Notes under the pieces: model-generated
The model's database searches: none
Seen by the model: the letters and a program-made list of their open reading frames with translations, nothing else
What the model was told of the DNA's origin: nothing
Shown here: positions 42,894 through 61,512 of the stretch, one piece after another
How the letters are laid out: each line of letters begins with the position of its first letter
Position numbering within the stretch: position 1 is the first letter of the stretch
Made by a program: the position numbers and the translations under genes
Assembly: GCF_022045235.1 (NCBI RefSeq)
Contig: NW_027266282.1
Location: forward strand, 5,270,001 to 5,334,000
DNA from: Haliotis cracherodii
Taxonomy: Eukaryota
Reading direction: 5' to 3'
Length of the DNA: 64,000 nucleotides

Positions 42894-42939
42894 ATAAATT
42901 CTACCAATTCCAGGTAACTACTGAACGTTTAATACTCAC

Positions 42940-43261
42940 CCCTGGAAAGGTAGAACAGTTCTGTTCCAGACGATAATGGCGCATCACTGGGCTTGGAGAA
43001 ACATACTCCGTGGATACGACATCCGCTGTTCGCCTTCTTGAAGGTGAAGCTGACGCAGCGCTCATCCCGCAGACAATGCAGTAGGCACATCACTTTGCTT
43101 CCTTGGGTGGAGCTCGAGATGAGGAACCGGGACAGCAGCCTGTTGCTGAAGCTGTTCTGGCGCATAGCGTACTCAGCGATGACCGTCTGGCTGCTTGACG
43201 TGTAGATCAGTCTGGCTATTGTGTCAATAAGGAGCAGAAAGGATGGGATGTGCCTTGGCAT
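42940..43261 (-). CDS. PAN-EB-PAN protein, coding exon 1 (putative signal peptide plus first PAN/apple domain)
   Basis: MPRHIPSFLLLI...; CLLHCLRDERCVSFTF...CRIH PAN pattern; phase-1 GTGAGT donor. Confidence 0.8.
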
Positions 43262-43602
43262 TGTGGAACCGGAGACTACCTTCTTCCACGTCTTGACGAA
43301 AAAGCCACGCTCTGAAATTAAATCTTCACTGTCAGCAGGCTGGTGGTCACTGTTCAAAAGTGAAACGTCACAATGGGATGTTTGGATACGTCATCATGTC
43401 AGATTACTTGTATGAACTAAACACTAATGCTAAAAGAAACCCAAAAAACAAAACCAAAAAAAAACAAAAAAAGTCTAGATTACTGCAGTATCTGAAAATG
43501 AAGAGAGTCACTGGGCTCCCTTTTATTATATTTTTATTAAGATAACTGAACAACTGTTTTTTTCTGTACGATATGTTCATTTCAGAGACTAGATGTTAGT
43601 CT

Positions 43603-47599: not shown

Positions 47600-48925
47600 A
47601 AGGCATTGAAAACTGTTCATTGTCATGTCACATAAGGCCACAAGGTTGCGCATCTTCTCGGCACTGGCTGGATAGGTGTACGAATTCTGTCCTGCGGAAT
47701 TCTGCGCCATTAAGCTTGTAACGCATTGGCCAGTTGTGGGAGTGTCTGCGGCGTGTTCTGACGTTGACGTACCCATCGATCGAGTTCATCCAAGAGGTGT
47801 TCGATTGGGTTGACATCTGGAGATCTCGACGGCCAGGGCAAGTCGTTGATGGTGACATTATGGTGGTAGACTACCGAGACACGAGTTGTGTGCGCTGGAG
47901 CGTTGACCTGTTAAAATAGTTACATCTGGTAGTCAATGATTGGAAGAAGGTGAGGTTGAAGAATGTGATTCATGTAGCGATTTGCTGTCAAATTTGCTTG
48001 AACAACAACCTAGTCAGATCTCGAGGTGTAGGATATGGCCTCCGCACCATGACACTACCGAAATTGTCGAATTCACGTACACAATGTGCGTGAAAAAGCT
48101 CGTTTCGACGACAATAAACACGTTGTTTTCCATTTCGCCGGTAAAGAAGAAATTGTGATTCCTCGCTAAACCACGCTCGTCTCCAGTTTCTTCAAATTCC
48201 AAAGCTGTGAGGTATGGCACCAACGCAAGCGTCGCTGTCGGTGGATCTGTTGCAAAACAGGGACAATAACTGGTCTTCTGGGTCGGATTCCAGCCTCGCG
48301 AAGATGGTTCCTGACAGTCTGGTCCGATATCCTCCTCAAACCAGGGATGCGTCCTGCAGTCTCCGTAGCTGTGGCATTGCGATGACGTAGGTGGAACAGT
48401 CGAATGTAGCGATCCTGTGCAGGGGTGGTAACTCTTGGTCGGCCGGTTCTCGGACGGTCTGCAGTGGAATTGAACAGTTACTGTGTGTACCGGTCCCAAA
48501 GGCGGCAAATGGTGCTGTGGTGGATGTTGAAGTGGCGTGCAACAGGAGACTGCGATTCCCCTCTTTGGATACGTCCTATGGCCATGTTCCGATCGGCAGC
48601 GCTGGGTCTCGGCATTTTCGAACTTGATAAATGTTGACAATTGAACGACAAATTATTAGTTTGTGCTTGCCTTTTTATAGCCACTACCACGAGTTACGAA
48701 TCCCATAATTGCACGTGCATTTTGCTTTACTGTTTTTCTCCTTGACATTTTGGAACAAGTGTGAAAACAATGCCGTTTAAGACATTGCACATCGACAATG
48801 GCTGCGTTTTCAGGCCACCAGTATTTTCCAATAACATATATCCAATTTATGTCCCGGATTTTTTGTGTAGTCAGGTTCAATTAACTACATACTACCTGTG
48901 CGGTTTTTGTTGTTGCTAAAGTGTA
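47600..48925 (-). mobile_element. Tc1-family DNA transposon with a decayed full-length transposase (about 48615-47620)
   Basis: MPRPSAADRNMAIG...VARHFNIHHSTICRL HTH, RPRTGRPRVTT, WFSEES and WPSRSPDVNPIEH motifs, with stops and frameshifts. Confidence 0.9.
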
Positions 48926-49571: not shown

Positions 49572-49737
49572 GGGGGGCGGTCGGGTAGCCTAGTGGTTAA
49601 AGCGTTCGCTCGTCACGCCAAAGACCCGGGTTCGATTCCCGACATGGGTACAATGTGTGAAGCCCATTTGTGGTGTCCCCCGCCGTGATATTGCTGGAAT
49701 ATTGCTAAAAGCGGCGTAAAACTATACTCACTCACTC
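49572..49737 (+). mobile_element. Family-B SINE, young full-length copy
   Basis: Intact A/B boxes; 12-bp TSD ACTAGTGTCCCT. Confidence 0.94.
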
Positions 49738-49894
49738 ACTAGTGTCCCTAGCCTTGTTTCACAAAGCGATCGTAGCCAAGGCGATCATAACTCCCATACT
49801 TAAACATAGACTGAAACAGTCGTAGCCGTGCGGTCGCTTTGTGAAACGGGAACCTGAGGTGAAATAGTACTCAATTAGAATTTAGTACCTTCAG

Positions 49895-50062
49895 TGAGTG
49901 AGTGAGTGAGTATGGTTTTACGCCGCTTTTAGCAATATTCCAGCAATATCGCGGCGGGGGACACCAGAAATGGGCTTCACACATTGTACCCATGTCGGGA
50001 ATCGAACCCGGGTCTTCGGCGTGACGAGCGAACGCTTTAACCACTAGGCTACCCGACCGCCC
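49895..50062 (-). mobile_element. Family-B SINE, young full-length copy (inverted relative to its neighbour)
   Basis: Near-identical reverse complement of 49572-49737; 11-bp TSD AGTACCTTCAG. Confidence 0.94.
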
Positions 50063-51224: not shown

Positions 51225-51721
51225 CCTTCGGGACTGAACAAATTTAACATTCTCAGTAAAGGGATCTTGGATTAGACTTTTGAGATAGAATATTTTATTT
51301 TTGAACTGCTTTTTCAATAATAACCCGTTTTTCTTTCCAATGAAATATTTTAAGGGTAACAGAACAAACCATTCAGGACATTAAGGGAATACTTAAAATG
51401 TGTGTGTGAAAAATCTGAATTTATAAAACACACTTTTTAAAAAAGATTCCAGTGCTGATGATGTTAACACCCATCCCTTGAATCCCGAATACTACTTTAC
51501 ACAAATCTGAAAATCATTTAGAAAAGGGTGCGATTTTATTTACTGACAAACTATCGATAAAATACAAAATATGAAGGGAATTATTTTTCTTTTTAGATTT
51601 TGAAGCTGCGTACCAAATACATTTTTTTTTGCGTACCGTGTACCACACTATGAATTCCGAATACACTGAGTCTCTAAACTGACCCTGAATCCCACGTTCC
51701 CACGGGAGGTTAACAGCCTAA

Positions 51722-52590
51722 TGCCCCCCTTTCACTACGACCACGAATATCCCGAATCACTCCGAATCGGAAACTTTCGAAAATCGTGATAATTCGGCCA
51801 AATATGCAAACTTTTTGTGAGAATTGGTAGCAGGTGCGAAGCGGTTACGACAAACGTACGACGGAGTTACGAAAACTCGTGGCTAATTAGGTTGAAAAAT
51901 ATGAAGAATGCCAGGAATGGGTTAAGAAACATGTACGAATTACATAAGTCATGTACGGATCATGCACGCATTGTAAGAATCACCTACGACTAAGTTACGA
52001 ATATGCCGAATGCATGTACGAATGCAGGACGATTGCAACGAATAATATACGAGTAGATAGCGAAAATCGGTACTTTTCCTGATACTTCGGCATGTTCTTG
52101 GGTCCCGAAAGGCTGGTCAACCCATCATTTCCACCAAAGAGGTTCAACGGAGAGCGCGTGTTGCTCTGGTCCTGGTCCTTGAGGAATCGTGTTGTTCTTA
52201 CTTAATTCTTACATGATTCGTAGTTGACTCGGGACATCCGTGGCTGTTTCGGGATGTTTTCGGGTTGAGGACAAGAAATTTTGTGTGCCACGAATCGCTA
52301 AGAATAGTCAAGAATGCAAAAGAATCGATTACGAAGCTGTACGGAACATAACAATTAATTACGAAAGGATTACGATACAGCCACGAATTTGCAATTCGGG
52401 GACCCTTCCACGAAAGTTTTTGACAAACAAAAACTTTCTCGCCGATTCGACGAACTCCCGCGAACTGTACGAATGTTTGTGAATCAAATAAGATTCAATT
52501 AAGAACTTCAAGAAATGACTGAGATTTATCTACGAAAATTTACAATTCGGGGTGATTCGGGATATTCGTGGTCGTAGAGAAATGGGGACA
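51722..52590. mobile_element. PIF/Harbinger-type MITE
   Basis: TIR ...TTTCACTACGACCACGAATATCCCGAATCAC / GTGATTCGGGATATTCGTGGTCGTAGAGAAA; TAA TSD. Confidence 0.9.
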
Positions 52591-53357
52591 TAAGCACTGC
52601 ACATCCCGACACAAAATATAGTGTGTCGTATGTATAGTTAGACTTTATAGCTGTTGAAAATATTTACCTTCCCGTGCATGAAAATAGTCTCTACTGAATT
52701 TTCTCCCTTGTGCTTCGCTGACGGATGATTGGTACAAATTTCACATACCCCTCTTGGAAATGCCGAATTTCTAATGTGTCATCGAAACAAGACGCATATC
52801 AAATGCGGTTTAGCGAACTTAACCGAGCATTTCCGATGGTAATGCAAGGGAGATCACTGTGGATGTGGTTATGTCGTTAGACTGGTTTGTCTGTCTTAGA
52901 GCGCTTGCGCTCCTCGTCGCAACACAGCCGCTAGAAGACGAAGGGCAGGGTACCAGTCTTGCTATGTCGTCTGCTACCTGTCAGGATGTCCGTGAAACTA
53001 TTCGATACCCGGCCCATAGAATGAAAACGTTTTCTATGAACGAAAATTATGCCGGTAAGATAAATATTTTGTCAACCGGTTCCTCGGGGTACCGCAAATC
53101 ATTGAATAGACGGTGGACGTCTATTTAGGCCCTACTAGTATTTCAGAGACGCCTTAGGTTTATACGCCCAGGCGTCTAGCCTGTTTATGACAGGCATCTA
53201 CTGTTTGATTACGGTCAACACTATGAAGATATGAAACGTATGTATTTTGCATTTGTATGATAACGACTTTCGTTTCAAAATCACTTTTTGAGTACCTAAA
53301 GGAATAGCTATCATTTAAATAGTAAGAACATCCTCACCCCCCGGTACTCTGACATAG

Positions 53358-53563: not shown

Positions 53564-55498
53564 AATAGATCTATATGTATTGAATAAACACGATAGGCCA
53601 GAGGACCATGTAACTACTACTAATAAAAAAACAGACTCGCAGACGAGACCTCGTCCACGAATTTTTGTGTGAGTTTGTTCATTATTATTATTATGAGTTA
53701 GATCTACATTGTCCTGTGGATAGGCCTTTAGATATTAATACTAATACGTAATTTTATGTACATAGAGAATCTCATCCGATTGTCTTTTGATATATAATAT
53801 ATCAACACGAGTTTATAAAAGTAGAAAAAGTCCGAGGGTTGCCGAGGAGTTTTTCCACTTTCATCAACGAGTGTTGATATATTTGATATCAAAAGACACT
53901 CGGGTGAGATTTTATTTATCATCCAACATCATTCTTCCAATTTTTTCAGTTTGTAGACAGTAATAAGCAGTGTCGTAAGAGTAAAAAGGACGTCATGGTA
54001 ACCAATGAGGTCACAATGGTCTGCAAAGCATTGTGAGGCAATTTTATTGCAGCCATATCTACAATAGCGATATCTCTTGTGCGGTCCAGTTTTGGATGAT
54101 AAAATGTAATAGTCAATAGATACTCATCACACTCACATAGAAAATATATCAATATTTAGTTGTTGTTTTTTACGCCACAGTTACGCAATAGGCCAGCTAT
54201 TTCACACCCTGTATGTTTGGTTACATAAATATTGTGGACCACTGCACACTTATTCTTCTTTGCATTACTTTTTGTGCCCTAAAACTGAGTATAAAGTCAC
54301 TTATTGTCGTGTCATGGTGATACCTTCTCAGAAACAATTAATGGATAACATAATTGCGTTCATGGGTAACTATGTATTCATGAATTGACATATGTCCTGC
54401 CTGTATTAGCACAGCCAAGAGTGAGGCTATTGTGCAAAACTAGGTCTGCATGCAATTCACATCCAGGTCAGTCGCAAGCCTTCACTAGAAATGCACTTTC
54501 CCCGAGAATCCAGGTTTAGTATTTGGCATAGTGACAAAAGAATTCTTGCGACACCAACATATGGCGGGATTGCACAAACGGGTTTTCTTTGATATTCGAC
54601 TCTGAACCAAACTAAATTAGCTTGTACATTATGTCAACATTTTCATCCATGGACTGAGAGAGAATATACCTTTACCAACCATGGATGATCTATAACATGA
54701 TGGGATGTACTTTTATTCTGGGACCACTACAGGTTAGTATTAGGATATAATAATACAATTACGTGTACGTCAATACAGAAGTCTGTGTCAGATTTAAAGC
54801 CACGGTTGTGGACACGAGCCCCCTCTGTATTTAAATCATGGATTGGTCGTGTTCACTGGCGTAGTTCTATATACTTATATGTGTTTGGTGTCGAAATTGG
54901 TGCTATTCGCAATTCTTCTGCATAAATGAGGCAGGTGTTGACCTACGTTTTTCTTTAAAAAAATAATTCGAGCACAAAAAGGTAAACTCCATAAGAGAAA
55001 ATATAACCATAAAAACCCTTAAAGTTAAAGTTAAGTGTAGTGTTTGATAATCATTCCAGGCACCAACAGGCGTTGTGGATACCACATTGGTCAATTCAAA
55101 TGAGGTCATCGTATTAATGATCGTATTTAAATTAATGATTAAATTAAATGCCCATTGTAGAACTATTGATACGTTCTTCAACATTTACTGTAAATACTTA
55201 CCGGATATCTTCTACTAGGGAAACAGACAGATTGTTTTCTTATATATAATTTATTCGTTCTTAGATGAACATTTAAAGAGGTAAACATTGAAAACCAGTT
55301 TTAAAGAATTCGCACACGCAACGTATCCGTTTATAATGTGTATGCTACTCACTAGGAACTGATGAACTTATTATAAAGTTATCAATTATATGGGGTCTAT
55401 GTAATACGCGGGGAAACAAGAGTAGACTACCATAGATACACTGTTACTGTTAAACCCCGTTAGTTCGGACTCCGATAGTGAGGAAACACACATACCTG

Positions 55499-55574: not shown

Positions 55575-56301
55575 TATTCAACATTCTGTAGGGATGTTAT
55601 TGAACATCATCGCCTTATATTTTAAATATTTGATTTCAACTACACAATATTTAACAGTAACAGTGTTGATAAACTTGAAATACACGAAGTGTTGTTCACA
55701 GTTATCTCCCTTATGTGATCAACCAGGAAGTTCATAAAAATGAGTAAACTGGTGATCTGACCCCAGCAGTTTTATTATTCCGCTTATCTATTGTGACCGT
55801 CATAATGTACTCGTTTCCTGTCGCTTCCGATGGTGACATAAAACATGATGCCACATTTAAAATTAACGGAATTGAAAGCCTTTGAAGGGCTTTGATATCA
55901 AATTACGTTAAAACAATCATAACACAGTGTGTAATAGATACAAAAATAGTTGTCTTTTTAGTCTTGGGTGTTTTAGGCGTGATTTAGGATGTTCAGTGCA
56001 TGTTCATACAGCATGAAGACATTCTGTCACTGCACTCCCAGAATCCGCAAATTGTATTCATCGATATTGGGCAAACGGATAAGGCATGACACAATAGTAT
56101 ATAACGCTTGTTTCATTACACGGATCAGTTATAAATAACAACGCAAAGTTTACGTGTTTAAGTCTTCCAATTTAAAATGTGTAGATATTGTGATAAAAAT
56201 AGATCCGCCGAATCAGAATTTACGATAAAACGTAAAGACATTAGCGAGCCTGTCAGTTGATCTGCAGTAGGGGAGAGAACGCTCTGGCAGTCGCTGTACA
56301 C

Positions 56302-56391
56302 ATGGCAGGGAGATGTAACAGGCCGCCGTCCTTCAGAAGAGTAGGTCTCAACATGAAGGACCTGTGCTGCTGTTTCTGGTCAGGATATCAG
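56302..56391 (+). CDS. Death-domain-only gene copy 1, exon 1 (MAGRCNRPPSFRRVGLNMKDLCCCFWSGYQ)
   Basis: ATG and a phase-0 CAG|GTAGGT donor at the same position in all three units; frame preserved through in-frame indels. Confidence 0.65.
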
Positions 56392-56871
56392 GTAGGTCAC
56401 TCCACCTGCCGCTATATATCCTCAATTTCTTTTGTTAATCTAGTTTATTCCGTCCGTCATAACTCCCATCCCGTTAACATCCTTAATTTCTGCGGTTAAT
56501 TTACTTTGTTTCGTCCGTCGTAATTCCTATCCCAAATCAGCATTATCAAGTGATAATGAGTAGCTCTGAAGTAAATAGTTTTCAATCACAAATTATTTGT
56601 GTTTGGAATTTGAATGTACATGTCTTTACCCATCGAAGGCCAAGCATGATAAATATTTCAAGGAATGAATCTATTTTATTTATGACTTCATATTTTAAAT
56701 ACATTTTATTTCCTAATCCCTACAGACGCATATCGATACAAATTGATCTGACAATACACTTATTTATTCCCCATAGAAGTTGAACGTTATACTTTTGGCG
56801 CCAATAAAACTACTGATATTCTATCTACTCATGTCACATGTTGAACTCGCTGTTTCTCCCACTGTCGCCAG

Positions 56872-57210
56872 CTGGTGCCACCAGACGAGGACCTGGAGGA
56901 CGAGGACCGCCTGACAGAAGATGAAAGAAGGTCCTGTGTGTCCGAGAGGGCACTAATGCAGGTGTCCCAACACATTGGTGGGGGTTTCCAGGTCCTGGGA
57001 CTGAGACTGGGCCTTTCGTATGTCAGTGTGGAGAGATGCACGCTGTCACAGTCATCACCTCAGATGCAGATATTCGTCATGTTAAACACGTGGAGACAAC
57101 TGAAGGGCAGACAAGCGACTGTTGAAGTACTGGTTCAAGCTCTGTCCGACAGCATGTCTGTCTGCACGGTAGACATGCCTCATGTGTACAGTGTGATCCG
57201 TGAAATGTAA
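56872..57210 (+). CDS. Death-domain-only gene copy 1, exon 2 (CRADD/RAIDD-like death domain)
   Basis: TTTCTCCCACTGTCGCCAG acceptor; SERALMQVSQHIG...LGLRLGLS...MLNTWRQLKGRQATVEVLVQAL death-fold pattern; TAA stop; AATAAA at 57455. Confidence 0.88.
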   Translation: MVPPDEDLEDEDRLTEDERRSCVSERALMQVSQHIGGGFQVLGLRLGLSYVSVERCTLSQSSPQMQIFVMLNTWRQLKGRQATVEVLVQALSDSMSVCTVDMPHVYSVIREM

Positions 57211-57876
57211 AACTACCAAAGACTGACACCATATACTCATGTGAAAGAAAGAAACTTCAGCTGCCTGTGATATTTAAATGCTTTCAAGAATGTTTCTTTG
57301 ACATGGCTTCATGTGTGCAGCTCTTTGGATAAAACGATAACTCGCCTGATGATTTCATTATTGTAATAATGATCATGTACCCCTCCTCGGATTTTAAACC
57401 TTTTATTTCTTCTCTGCTGTGTTAACATTGGATATTTTATGAATCTGTTATCCTAATAAAACCTCAAAGTACAACAATACTACTTTCTTGTGATTTTTTT
57501 AATAACTGTTTTTGAAAGAATGACAGCATGCCTTTCTGCGCGGTAAACATACCGCTTGTATACAGGGTGATCCGTGAAGTGTAACATTACCGAAGTATAA
57601 AATGAAAACGTATCGCACTCTGTGTGTAAACGTGATACCAACTGTGTCTGCCCAGGTTGATCTGCTTACTGACCATTTAACGGATCACTTATAAATATCA
57701 GAAAAAAAGTTAACCTGTTTAAATTTTCCAGTTTTATATGTACATGTACACATTGTGAAATCAATAGATCCCTCGATTCAGGTATTGCCATTTACCTTAA
57801 ATGACATAAAGATATTAGAGGGCCTGTCAGTTGGTCTGCAGTCGGGTGGAGAGAACACTCCCGGAGTCCTATACTC

Positions 57877-57966
57877 ATGGCAGGCAGAAGATGTAACAGG
57901 TCAACCTTCGGAAGAATATGCCTCAACACGATGAACCTGTGTTGCTGTGTCTGGACGGGATATCAG
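57877..57966 (+). CDS. Death-domain-only gene copy 2, exon 1 (MAGRRCNRSTFGRICLNTMNLCCCVWTGYQ)
   Basis: Paralogous to copy 1; weaker GTTGGT donor. Confidence 0.6.
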
Positions 57967-58424
57967 GTTGGTCACTCCACCTGCCGCTATATGTCCTCAG
58001 TTTCTGTGGTTAATTTACTTTGTTTCGTCCGTCGTAATTCCTATCCCAAAACAGCTCCCCCAAATTGAGTTGATCCATTTATAAAGTGATAATGAGTAGC
58101 CCTGAAATAAACAGATTTCAATCACATTTCATCTATGTTTGTAATTTGAATGTATATACCCATCGAAGGCCAAGCATGATACATATTTCAAGGAATGAAT
58201 CTGTATCATTTATAACTTCATTTTTTAAATACCCTTTTCTTCCCAATCCCTACAAACATATCGCCTTTACCAATGTCACTTTGTGTATCGATACATATTG
58301 ATCTGACAATACACTTACTTATTCCCCATAGATGTTGAACGTTACTTTTGGCGCCAATAAAACTACTGATATTCTATCTACTCATGTCACATGCTGAACT
58401 CGCTGTTTCTCCCACTGTCGCCAG

Positions 58425-58763
58425 CTGGTGCCACCAGACGAGGACCTGGAGGACGAGGACCGCCTGACAGAAGATGAAAGAAGGTCCTGTGTGTCTGAGA
58501 GGGCACTAATGCAGGTGTCCCAACACATTGGTGGGGGTTTCCAGGTCCTGGGACTGAGACTGGGCCTTTCGTATGTCAGTGTGGAGAGATGCACGCTGTC
58601 ACAGTCATCACCTCAGATGCAGATATTCGTCATGTTAAACACGTGGAGACAACTGAAGGGCAGACAAGCGACTGTTGAAGTACTGGTTCAAGCTCTGTCC
58701 GACAGCATGTCTGTCTGCACGGTAGACATGCCTCGTGTGTACAGTGTGATCCGTGAAATGTAA
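58425..58763 (+). CDS. Death-domain-only gene copy 2, exon 2
   Basis: Near-identical to copy 1 exon 2; intact acceptor, stop and AATAAA. Confidence 0.88.
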   Translation: MVPPDEDLEDEDRLTEDERRSCVSERALMQVSQHIGGGFQVLGLRLGLSYVSVERCTLSQSSPQMQIFVMLNTWRQLKGRQATVEVLVQALSDSMSVCTVDMPRVYSVIREM

Positions 58764-59419
58764 AACTACCAAAGACTGACACCATATACTCATGTGGCAG
58801 AAAGAAAATTCAGCTGCCTATGATATTTAAATGCTTTCAAGAATGTTTCTTTGACATGGCTTCATGTGTGCAGCTCTTCGGATAAAACGATAACTCGCCT
58901 GATGATTCTATTATTGTAATAATGTTTATGTACCCCTCCTTGGATTTTAAACCCTTTATTTCCTCTCTGCTGTGTAAACATTGGATATGTTATGGAGCTG
59001 TAATCCTAATAAAACGTCAAAGTACAACAATACTACTTTCTTGTGAGTTTTTTAGAACTGTTTTGGAAAAAAAGACAGCATGCCTTTCTGCACGGTAAAC
59101 ATACCGCCTGTATACAGGGTGATCCGTGAACTGTAACATTACCGAAGTATAAAATGAAAACGTATCTCACTCTGTGTGTAAACGTGATACCAACTGTGTC
59201 TGTCCAGGTTGATCTGCTTACTGACCATTTAACGGATCACTTATAAATAACAGTACAAAGTTACCTGTTTAACTTTTCCAGTTTTATATGCACATGGTCA
59301 AATTGTGAAACCAAAAGATCCGTCGATTCAGGTATTGCGATTTATGACGGAGAGTTATTACTGGGCCTGTCAGATGATCTGTAGTCGGGTGGAGAGCACG
59401 CTCCCGGAGTCCTATACTC

Positions 59420-59512
59420 ATGGCAGGCAGAAGATGTAACAGGTTGTCAACCTTCGGAAGAATATGCCTCAACACGATGAACCTGTATTGCTGTGTCTGG
59501 TCAGGATATCAG
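59420..59512 (+). CDS. Death-domain-only gene copy 3, exon 1 (MAGRRCNRLSTFGRICLNTMNLYCCVWSGYQ)
   Basis: Paralogous; GTAGGT donor, phase 0. Confidence 0.63.
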
Positions 59513-59970
59513 GTAGGTCACTCCACCTGCCGCTATATGTCCTCAATTTCTGTGGTTAATTTACTTTGTTTCGTCCGTCGTAATTCCTATCCCAAAACAG
59601 CTCCCCCAAGTTGAGTTGATCCATTTATAAAGTGATAATAAGTAGCCCTGAAATAACCAGTTTTCAATCACATTTCATCTATGTTTGGTATTTGAATGTA
59701 TATACCCATCGAAGGTAAAGTATGATAAATATTTCAAGGAATGAATCTATATCATTTATAAATTCATTTTTAAAATACCCTTTTCTTCCCAATCCCTACA
59801 AACATATCGCCTTTACCAATGTCACTTTGTGTATCGATACATATTGATCTGACAATACTTTAATTTATTCCCCATCGAAGTTGAACGTTACTTTTGGCGC
59901 AAATAAAACTACTGATATTCTATCTACTCATGTCACATGCTGAACTCGCTGTTTCTCCCACTGTCGCCAG

Positions 59971-60309
59971 CTGGTGCCACCAGACGAGGACCTGGAGGAC
60001 GAGGACCGCCTGACAGAAGATGAAAGAAGGTCCTGTGTGTCTGAGAGGGCACTAATGCAGGTGTCCCAACACATTGGTGGGGCTTTCCAGGTCCTGGGAC
60101 TGAGACTGGGCCTTTCGTATGTCAGTGTGGAGAGATGCACGCTGTCACAGTCATCACCTCAGATGCAGATATTCGTCATGTTAAACACGTGGAGACAACT
60201 GAAGGGCAGACAAGCGACTGTTAAAGTACTGGTTCAAGCTCTGTCCGACAGCATGTCTGTCTGCACGGTAGACATGCCTCGTGTGTACAGGGTGATCCGT
60301 GAAATGTAA
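59971..60309 (+). CDS. Death-domain-only gene copy 3, exon 2
   Basis: Intact death domain with three amino-acid changes versus copy 2. Confidence 0.88.
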   Translation: MVPPDEDLEDEDRLTEDERRSCVSERALMQVSQHIGGAFQVLGLRLGLSYVSVERCTLSQSSPQMQIFVMLNTWRQLKGRQATVKVLVQALSDSMSVCTVDMPRVYRVIREM

Positions 60310-60889
60310 CACTACCAAAGATCATATACTCATGTGGCAGAAAGAAACTTCAGATATATTACATATTCTAACCAGGTAGTCTGTATATATCTTAGTATAG
60401 TGTCCCTGCTTTAACGAATGTTTCCCTAACATGGACTACATGTGTGCAGCAGTTTCGTTATAACGATAACTCACTTGAATATTTTTGTCATTGTAAACAA
60501 TTATTCATGTACTTCTGCGTGGATTATGAACTCTTTATTTCTTCTATACTTTGAAAACATTGGATATATTATGAAACGCTAATCTTAGTAAAACGTTAAA
60601 AGGATTACAATATGCAGATTATCTTGACTTTTCTATTACTGTTCTGGAAAGACTGATCCTTGAAATGTACAGTTGGAGAGGGTGAATGAATTATTGGAGC
60701 AAGCCCTGCCCCACAGCATTCCTGTCTGCGTGATGGACCTGCCTCATCTATAAACAAGGCAACATCGATATTGGCTGAAAATATTCAGTCAATATACTTA
60801 TTAATTTAATCTCATTTTAATCTGGATCTATTTTGCTCGTACAATTTGAGTAAGCAGTTTACACAATATATTGGAAGCAATCTGATGTC

Positions 60890-61130: not shown

Positions 61131-61167
61131 CATATACATATTGCATGATTATAGACACTGACTAATA

Positions 61168-61512
61168 TATACAGGATGATCCGTGAAATGTAACATTACC
61201 CAAGACAACGGGACTATGTACCCCTATGTGGGACATGCAGCTCCCTGAGATGTTTTACATACTTTAACGATTGATTGCTTAAGATGGACTTCATGTGTGC
61301 GGTACTTTGGTGAGATAGATAGCTCACTTGATTCCATTATTGTAACAATGTTGATGTACCCCTACTTGGATATAGAACCCTTTATTTCTTCTATACTGTG
61401 TAAACATTGAGTATGTTATGAAGCTGTAATCGTAATAAAACCTTAAACTATTACTATATGACGATTATTTGAATTTCTATTACTGATTGGAAAGAATGAT
61501 CCGTGAAATGTA
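61168..61512 (+). pseudogene. Relic fourth death-domain unit (last codons plus 3' UTR only)
   Basis: TACAGGATGATCCGTGAAATGTAA followed by sequence alignable to the 3' UTRs of copies 1-3, including AATAAA. Confidence 0.7.

Follow-up and report, generated by a model that had tools for sequence, protein, structure and literature searches.

A tandem array of spliced death-domain genes in Haliotis cracherodii belongs to a multigene abalone family with likely N-terminal membrane anchors

A 64,000-nt stretch of the Haliotis cracherodii genome (assembly GCF_022045235.1, contig NW_027266282.1, 5,270,001-5,334,000, forward strand; hereafter the window, to whose first letter plain positions refer) carries a tandem array of three small genes that are real, spliced, under selection and uncharacterised. 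Their predicted products are members of the death domain (DD) family, of the DD class of CRADD (RAIDD), with a single death-fold domain and nothing else, preceded by a short N-terminal exon that is likely a membrane anchor. We tentatively favour a role for these proteins as docking adaptors at membranes.

The array consists of three direct repeats of about 1.55 kb each, with start-to-start spacings of 1553 and 1546 nt. Each unit comprises a first coding exon of 30, 30 or 31 codons, ending in phase 0 at a CAG/GT donor, and a DD exon; introns of 480, 458 and 458 nt separate the two, and the predicted proteins of 142, 142 and 143 amino acids (aa) are 100% identical to the unnamed H. cracherodii RefSeq proteins XP_071111716.1, XP_071111484.1 and XP_071111593.1, respectively. 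The unit structure proposed in an initial annotation of the DNA, made from its letters alone, was thereby borne out. Intact orthologs were found in four Haliotis species, and in RefSeq the H. rufescens ortholog is a single gene with three isoforms.

Pfam Death (PF00531) was the sole family matched in units 1-3 (30.6-31.3 bits; cut-off 22.6), in agreement with the DD-only build first suggested. The Pfam scan found no CARD in the unit protein, to which the leader exon described below supplies no coding, and no TIR domain, giving Death only; no transmembrane segment was found either (best 19-residue hydropathy 1.17). The predicted model has six helices (residues 55-62, 69-75, 80-87, 93-111, 114-123 and 132-141), with a predicted local distance difference test score (pLDDT) of at least 90 across residues 51-140 and low confidence for residues 1-33 (17-row alignment). 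The closest solved match by sequence was the RAIDD/CRADD DD (E 3e-6), which was also the top match in Foldseek (E 3e-4) and in full structural alignment (Z 13.9, root-mean-square deviation 1.7 over 90 residues; next 11.2), upholding the CRADD/RAIDD-type assignment made at the outset. The corresponding Z values for TNFR1 (10.4) and MyD88 (8.3) indicate that, among the PIDDosome-, TNFR- and TLR-type partners originally listed, the latter two types fit less well than the CRADD class. An ESM Atlas search returned generic DD clusters only, and some paralogs carry the RefSeq name 'CRADD-like'.

A genome search gave 31 matches. The fetched clusters and the window together held 36 DD-exon matches, and five anchor-clade clusters on four contigs accounted for 32 of these (window, 3; C1, 5; C4, 2; C5 at 12.9 Mb, 5; C5 at 31.7 Mb, 17), a distribution that does not fit the local expansion initially proposed. 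An upstream anchor-type exon was found for 24 of the 32. Fourteen of these exons encode a basic tail, of net charge +1 to +8, whose last 12 residues include a CC pair (window, 3; C1, 5; C4, 2; C5 at 12.9 Mb, 4), and ten start with MGN (MGNxxS/L), with Ser6 in eight and Cys7 in six. All anchor exons finish at a phase-0 donor with Tyr/His/Phe/Arg-x-Gln/Arg-type ends, and because some MG exons end in C-W-S-G-x-x-Y-Q, similar to the C-(F/V)-W-(S/T)-G-Y-Q of the window exons, the two types are probably homologous. Full-length RefSeq models of H. rubra, H. asinina, H. rufescens and H. cracherodii bear the same tails.

Basic residues next to a Cys cluster form a signal for S-palmitoylation, and MGxxxS is a signal for N-myristoylation. 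The strongest argument that the N-terminal exon is a membrane anchor, which we consider likely, is that sister clades have signals for two lipid chemistries at the same position; the palmitoylation-type anchor of the initial annotation gains from paralogs that either retain the Cys pair or swap in a myristoylation-type start. Among 131 other Met-starting DD proteins of a wide search, a CC pair within the first 40 aa occurred in none and the MG pattern in one. An amphipathic-helix test was positive for most C1 tails and several MG tails. The combination of a lipid-anchor-type start and a DD was also seen on an NLR-like protein (P0136, 1086 aa), a DD-NACHT protein with a myristoyl/palmitoyl-type start. 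All relatives found with the anchor plus DD build were from Haliotis (4 of 4 and 11 of 11), and in a representative search covering 2492 DD proteins the short anchor-type ones among the best 150 were from Haliotis where named. As far as searched, the anchored DD family is abalone-specific, narrower than the mollusc module first envisaged.

A second in-frame ATG lies directly before the Cys cluster in all three units (56353, 57931 and 59477), with A at its -3 position versus C at the first ATG, and could yield a shorter form of 124-125 aa; it aligns with the start of the MG clade, and one H. rufescens model has Ile at that place. Three H. rubra RefSeq isoforms (P0011, P0017 and P0018) read exon 1 in another frame up to a later donor and are without the Cys cluster; they may be true splice variants or model artefacts.

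Purifying selection acts on the DDs: their ratio of non-synonymous to synonymous substitution rates (dN/dS) was 0.11-0.28 for eight pairs that span subfamilies or are otherwise older and have a usable dS exceeding 0.5 (two pairs being saturated), and 0.11-0.62 for four younger pairs. Between the units of the array, exon 2 shows 98.5-99.4% identity, whereas exon 1 of unit 1 is only 82-83% identical to those of the other units and the 5' part of its intron 83-84%, a pattern suggesting that gene conversion probably homogenised the DD exon while the anchor exon diverged. Tails of unit-1 type and unit-3 type are both present in H. rufescens, so the duplication predates the split from that species. 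The family turns over through tandem duplication and loss. As side observations on the DD exon, further copies of the final ~74 nt of this exon lie behind each unit (57522-57595, 59074-59147 and 61159-61206), and like repeats of the DD-exon end occur at G000:C4:19799942-19807136.

A careful tree was built from 38 DDs over 101 columns under a simpler model; these were 38 of the 100 rows of a quick tree, near-copies, multi-DD proteins and most unlabelled short proteins being omitted. It recovered a Cys clade (support 100/99) and an MG-cluster clade (100/97) as sisters (87/83) inside a group (89/86) of gastropod and other short CARD-DD proteins, which includes the genome's single close CARD-DD gene (C56:2565488-2567941; DD ~23% identical to the family DD), and it placed the Roc-COR DDs apart from the family. 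The DD exons of C56, of the C23 genes and of the MG cluster have a common phase-1 acceptor, which in the Cys clade is shifted to phase 0; this sharing fits an origin in which an anchor exon took the place of a CARD exon. The C23 locus (G000:C23:19675037-19699914; L056, L057 and L064) holds an HEPN-like-DD gene and DD-only genes of the same DD class without an anchor.

In addition to the genomic comparisons, eight of 23 listed sequencing runs were examined, seven RNA-like and one genomic-type (X19). The RNA status of the seven, which come from four studies under four organism labels, is the tool's guess, none being recorded as RNA, and contig depth cannot rank expression. Run X6 was at least 99% alike to the window, and the remaining runs diverged by a few percent. 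The unit 1 junction expected from the initial annotation (56391>56872, GT..AG) was spliced in six of the seven RNA-like runs (X1, X2, X3, X4, X6 and X8, the short side measuring only 27-30 letters in X4 and X8) and appeared as a loose end in the seventh, X5, whereas X19 spans the intron without a splice joint. For the expected unit 2 junction (57966-58425), a unit-2-type exon 1 was joined to a DD exon in X3 only. A unit-3-type 3' end was a loose end in X5, matching the window at 29 of 30 letters (~60359-60388), and unit-3-type exon 1 lies outside the coverage of the RNA-like contigs. A further joint in X19 (57901>56330), which fuses unit-2 upstream sequence to a unit-1-type exon 1 and intron, suggests that the animal sequenced carries a chimeric unit or differs in copy number.

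The contigs also contain a non-coding leader exon shared by two units. Its splice to unit 2 was a joint in X1 (54729>57779, cut +3) and a loose end in X2, and its splice to unit 1 was a loose end in X4 at 56265 that maps to 54703-54729; the leader's 5' end (54564) is a contig start only, and exons further upstream, of which none was seen, are possible. With this leader, which despite seven upstream ATGs adds no in-frame coding, we reject the possibility that the DD exons are last exons of a larger upstream coding gene. A leader common to units 1 and 2 means that the array acts partly as one locus, which fits the single three-isoform gene of H. rufescens; the three genes of the initial annotation stand as spliced units, although not as fully separate ones.

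We lean, with a little less than even confidence, towards the unit proteins being lipid-anchored DD docking adaptors for CRADD-class partners, most likely the soluble CARD-DD protein of C56. The basic Cys-rich tail of the Cys clade would be S-acylated and the MG clade N-myristoylated, with or without S-acylation; the lipid tail would hold the DD at the inner membrane face, spaced from the bilayer by the acidic linker. The anchored DD would dock CRADD-class DDs, most likely that of the C56 adaptor, and could locally seed a PIDDosome-like assembly that recruits CARD caspases, a working mode resembling that of TRAM, a TLR sorting adaptor, with a DD replacing TIR. A complex prediction for the window DD with the C56 DD, run without alignments, scored 0.01 and speaks neither for nor against this pairing.

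Several observations weigh against this docking role or against the anchor on which it depends. The PF10461 profile for PIDD matched nowhere, an uninformative blank, and none of three ZU5 loci inspected was PIDD-like. The trees forcing the family with Roc-COR DDs and with vertebrate/amphioxus CRADD-like DDs were not rejected by the approximately unbiased (AU) test (p-AU 0.39 and 0.19, respectively). Eight of the 32 anchor-clade DD exons are without an anchor-type exon, and window tails did not exceed shuffled sequences in amphipathicity (p 0.40-0.50). A pattern for Cys or MG was used to locate the anchor exons, a bias that makes the background control matter, and outside the window these exons were matched to DD exons by position and RefSeq models. 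Recent pairs have dN/dS near 1, with very few changes (units 1 and 3 differ by one synonymous and four non-synonymous). Of the 32 paralog DD exons, at least 7 are broken. A deletion of 8 nt at 57018, flanked by short GT repeats, shifts the DD reading frame in the main contig of X1-X3, three of the seven RNA-like runs and all from one study; the product would have 111 aa, of which only 78 aa are shared, and the transcript, with the deletion in its last exon, would likely escape decay. The site is intact in X4 (same study), X5 and X8, and X6 does not reach it. The frameshift allele and the broken paralogs imply that single copies are dispensable.

Docking and seeding is favoured over a membrane-bound decoy because the anchor is kept in two chemistries, so that location matters. 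As decoys, the anchored DDs, which lack a CARD, would cap or sequester CRADD-class partners and damp cell death or inflammation, in line with the absence of any effector domain from the unit proteins and with tandem, lineage-restricted copies and frequent loss that parallel the history of the primate COPs and POPs in the accessible part of PMC3775265; oyster TIR-only MyD88 copies have been proposed as competitors, according to the available portion of PMC4346834. An anchor would be superfluous in a pure decoy, but its exon is retained across old subfamilies, and the DD is far from the C56 DD, whereas COPs stay near their parent; we regard a decoy as less likely than docking, though not far behind it and well ahead of the other rivals. 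An anchored adaptor working outside the caspase-2 route, with Roc-COR-DD GTPases, the C23 HEPN-like-DD protein or itself as partner, would draw on the presence of the same DD class in Roc-COR-DD, NACHT, HEPN-Ig and kinase proteins, on 14 COR-A matches in the genome, on the C23 gene lying beside DD-only genes (HEPN_Swt1 E 0.02-0.03, under cut-off) and on the AU test not rejecting a Roco origin. Free trees, however, group the family with CARD-DD rather than Roco DDs, and no Roco DD of the genome was among the 31 search matches, which makes such a partner improbable.

The Cys cluster itself might be a metal, disulfide or redox site in soluble proteins, as the three to five Cys per tail and the CxxCxCC of the C1 copies would allow, but Cys spacing varies between subfamilies, the sister clade starts with MG and has no Cys in the exon of four of its ten members, and there is no hydrophobic signal or transmembrane stretch, leaving this explanation with very low probability. 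Least probable of all is that the genes are redundant recent duplicates of little function drifting to loss: the near-identity of the DD exons, the frameshift allele, the broken paralogs and the remnant of a fourth unit would accord with drift, but the low dN/dS between subfamilies (0.11-0.28), intact orthologs in four Haliotis species and spliced contigs from four studies do not. A bolder extension of the docking role, which we consider a long shot, is a membrane-addressing code in which about two dozen DD-only adaptors with swappable palmitoyl and myristoyl anchors would direct one soluble CARD-DD protein to different membranes; the pair would then be a split stand-in for the CARD-DD-transmembrane MAVS that abalone reportedly lack, and the family the first DD-type sorting adaptors.

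Motifs around the units were also surveyed. The initial annotation had read a TCAG(T/A)T before each ATG as initiator-like. The motif is present (56253, 57827 and 59370), but an initiator role was rejected, since it is common (nine occurrences in 56000-60700; 0.83 per kb across the window), the contigs of X1, X2, X3 and X5 extend upstream of it, and that of unit 1 falls inside the 3' splice site taken by the leader exon. A better promoter candidate is TATAAATA, found in a single copy per unit, roughly 170-190 nt upstream of the ATG, and at 0.14 per kb in the window; such TATA boxes were not general among paralogs, and contigs cannot reveal the transcription start. The AATAAA signals noted for copies 1 and 2 were both found. 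All features are collected in Table 1.

Table 1 Features of the death-domain gene array in the window.
Feature	Position	Strand	Remarks
Shared non-coding leader exon	54564-54732	+	Splices to 56268 (unit 1) or 57782 (unit 2)
TATAAATA, candidate TATA box, unit 1	56130-56137	+	Motif scan; putative function
Unit 1 coding exon 1	56302-56391	+	Basic tail, CCC cluster, phase-0 donor; second in-frame ATG at 56353
Unit 1 intron	56392-56871	+	480 nt, GT-AG; skipped in RNA-like contigs, present in X19
Unit 1 exon 2, coding sequence	56872-57210	+	Acidic linker, death domain, stop
AATAAA, unit 1	57455-57460	+	RNA-like contigs end at 57414-57499
TATAAATA, candidate TATA box, unit 2	57690-57697	+	Motif scan
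Unit 2 coding exon 1	57877-57966	+	CCC cluster; spliced to DD exon in X3
Unit 2 exon 2, coding sequence	58425-58763	+	Death domain; 99.4% identical to unit 1
AATAAA, unit 2	59008-59013	+	Motif
TATAAATA, candidate TATA box, unit 3	59242-59249	+	Motif scan
Unit 3 coding exon 1	59420-59512	+	CC pair; no RNA-like contig over exon
Unit 3 exon 2, coding sequence	59971-60309	+	Death domain
AGTAAA, unit 3, variant polyadenylation signal	60587-60592	+	Occupies the place of AATAAA in units 1-2
Remnant of further unit	61152-61499	+	Last codons of exon 2 and 3' untranslated region only; 73% identity to unit 1

Elsewhere in the window lie a PAN/apple-domain exon (42932-43390, minus strand), a Tc3-type transposase fragment (48169-48477, minus strand) and inverted repeats (49575-50062 and 51718-52594). 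Single-exon ankyrin-repeat open reading frames of ~2060 and ~1890 aa (L059:3807-9998 and L066:853-6510) occur near the window array and directly beside the MG cluster, and an LRR-Roc-COR open reading frame of 1043 aa (L060:6213-9341, minus strand, G000:C22) has a downstream DD exon of a different DD class.

CRADD has been proposed as the sole activator of CARD caspases in molluscs, without an apoptosome, in the accessible sections of PMC11463336, whose supplement, as far as available, gives CRADD as N/A for Haliotis diversicolor; abalone have been reported to lack MAVS in the available part of PMC11103948. The family was not described in the accessible parts of PMC11463336, PMC6901815, PMC3775265, PMC4346834, PMC5557890, PMC9334734 and PMC11103948, and the words 'death', 'CRADD' and 'immune' do not occur in the main text of an abalone copy-number paper (PMC9936805). 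In the open-licence literature, no description of a lipid anchor with a lone CRADD-class DD was found, and no paper matched 'death domain-only' with 'invertebrate'. The family offers small, clonable candidates for where and how mollusc CARD-caspase complexes assemble, and its copy-number and frameshift polymorphisms can be examined for a relation to disease resistance in abalone, both farmed and endangered.

Among known systems, NRADD has a transmembrane helix and is a relative of p75NTR. NRADD/p45 (PDB 2ib1) resembles the family as a small membrane-held DD protein, membrane attachment being predicted for the family, but the abalone proteins have no transmembrane segment and match it weakly in sequence (E 0.09); NRADD/p45 tunes DD signalling (available parts of PMC3720591 and PMC4122344). 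CRADD/RAIDD (PDB 2o71, 2of5) shares the DD class, by sequence and fold, but carries a CARD where the family proteins have an anchor-type tail, and exists in one copy, whereas the abalone family counts about two dozen in addition to the separate CARD-DD gene on C56. Oyster MAVS (CARD-DD-transmembrane; accessible part of PMC5557890) combines a membrane-held DD with a CARD and would be a parallel if anchored DD-only proteins and the soluble C56 CARD-DD protein cooperate, although MAVS is one chain and the abalone pair two proteins. The C56 CARD scores as CARD and not as the RIG-I/MAVS-type CARD_2, none of 12 CARD-DD hits checked had a transmembrane segment, and a search for longer CARD-DD-transmembrane relatives was blank, which is weak evidence.

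In TRAM, TIRAP and dMyD88 a lipid or basic anchor at the N terminus precedes a single homotypic domain, an arrangement predicted alike in the family. The TRAM anchor is a myristoyl group with basic residues, and the start of the MG clade is of this myristoylation type, as described in the available part of PMC6901815; TRAM and TIRAP nevertheless use TIR, whereas the abalone family uses a DD, is multigene with fast turnover and is not known to have a receptor or complex. CARD16/17/18 and POP1/2 (accessible part of PMC3775265) are like the family in their single death-fold domain, tandem duplication and restriction to a single lineage; the abalone proteins differ in DD subfamily, in their predicted membrane anchor and in lying farther from the presumed parent. 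The family combines the build of a sorting adaptor with the history of CARD-only proteins, and is neither CRADD, TRAM/TIRAP, NRADD nor MAVS.

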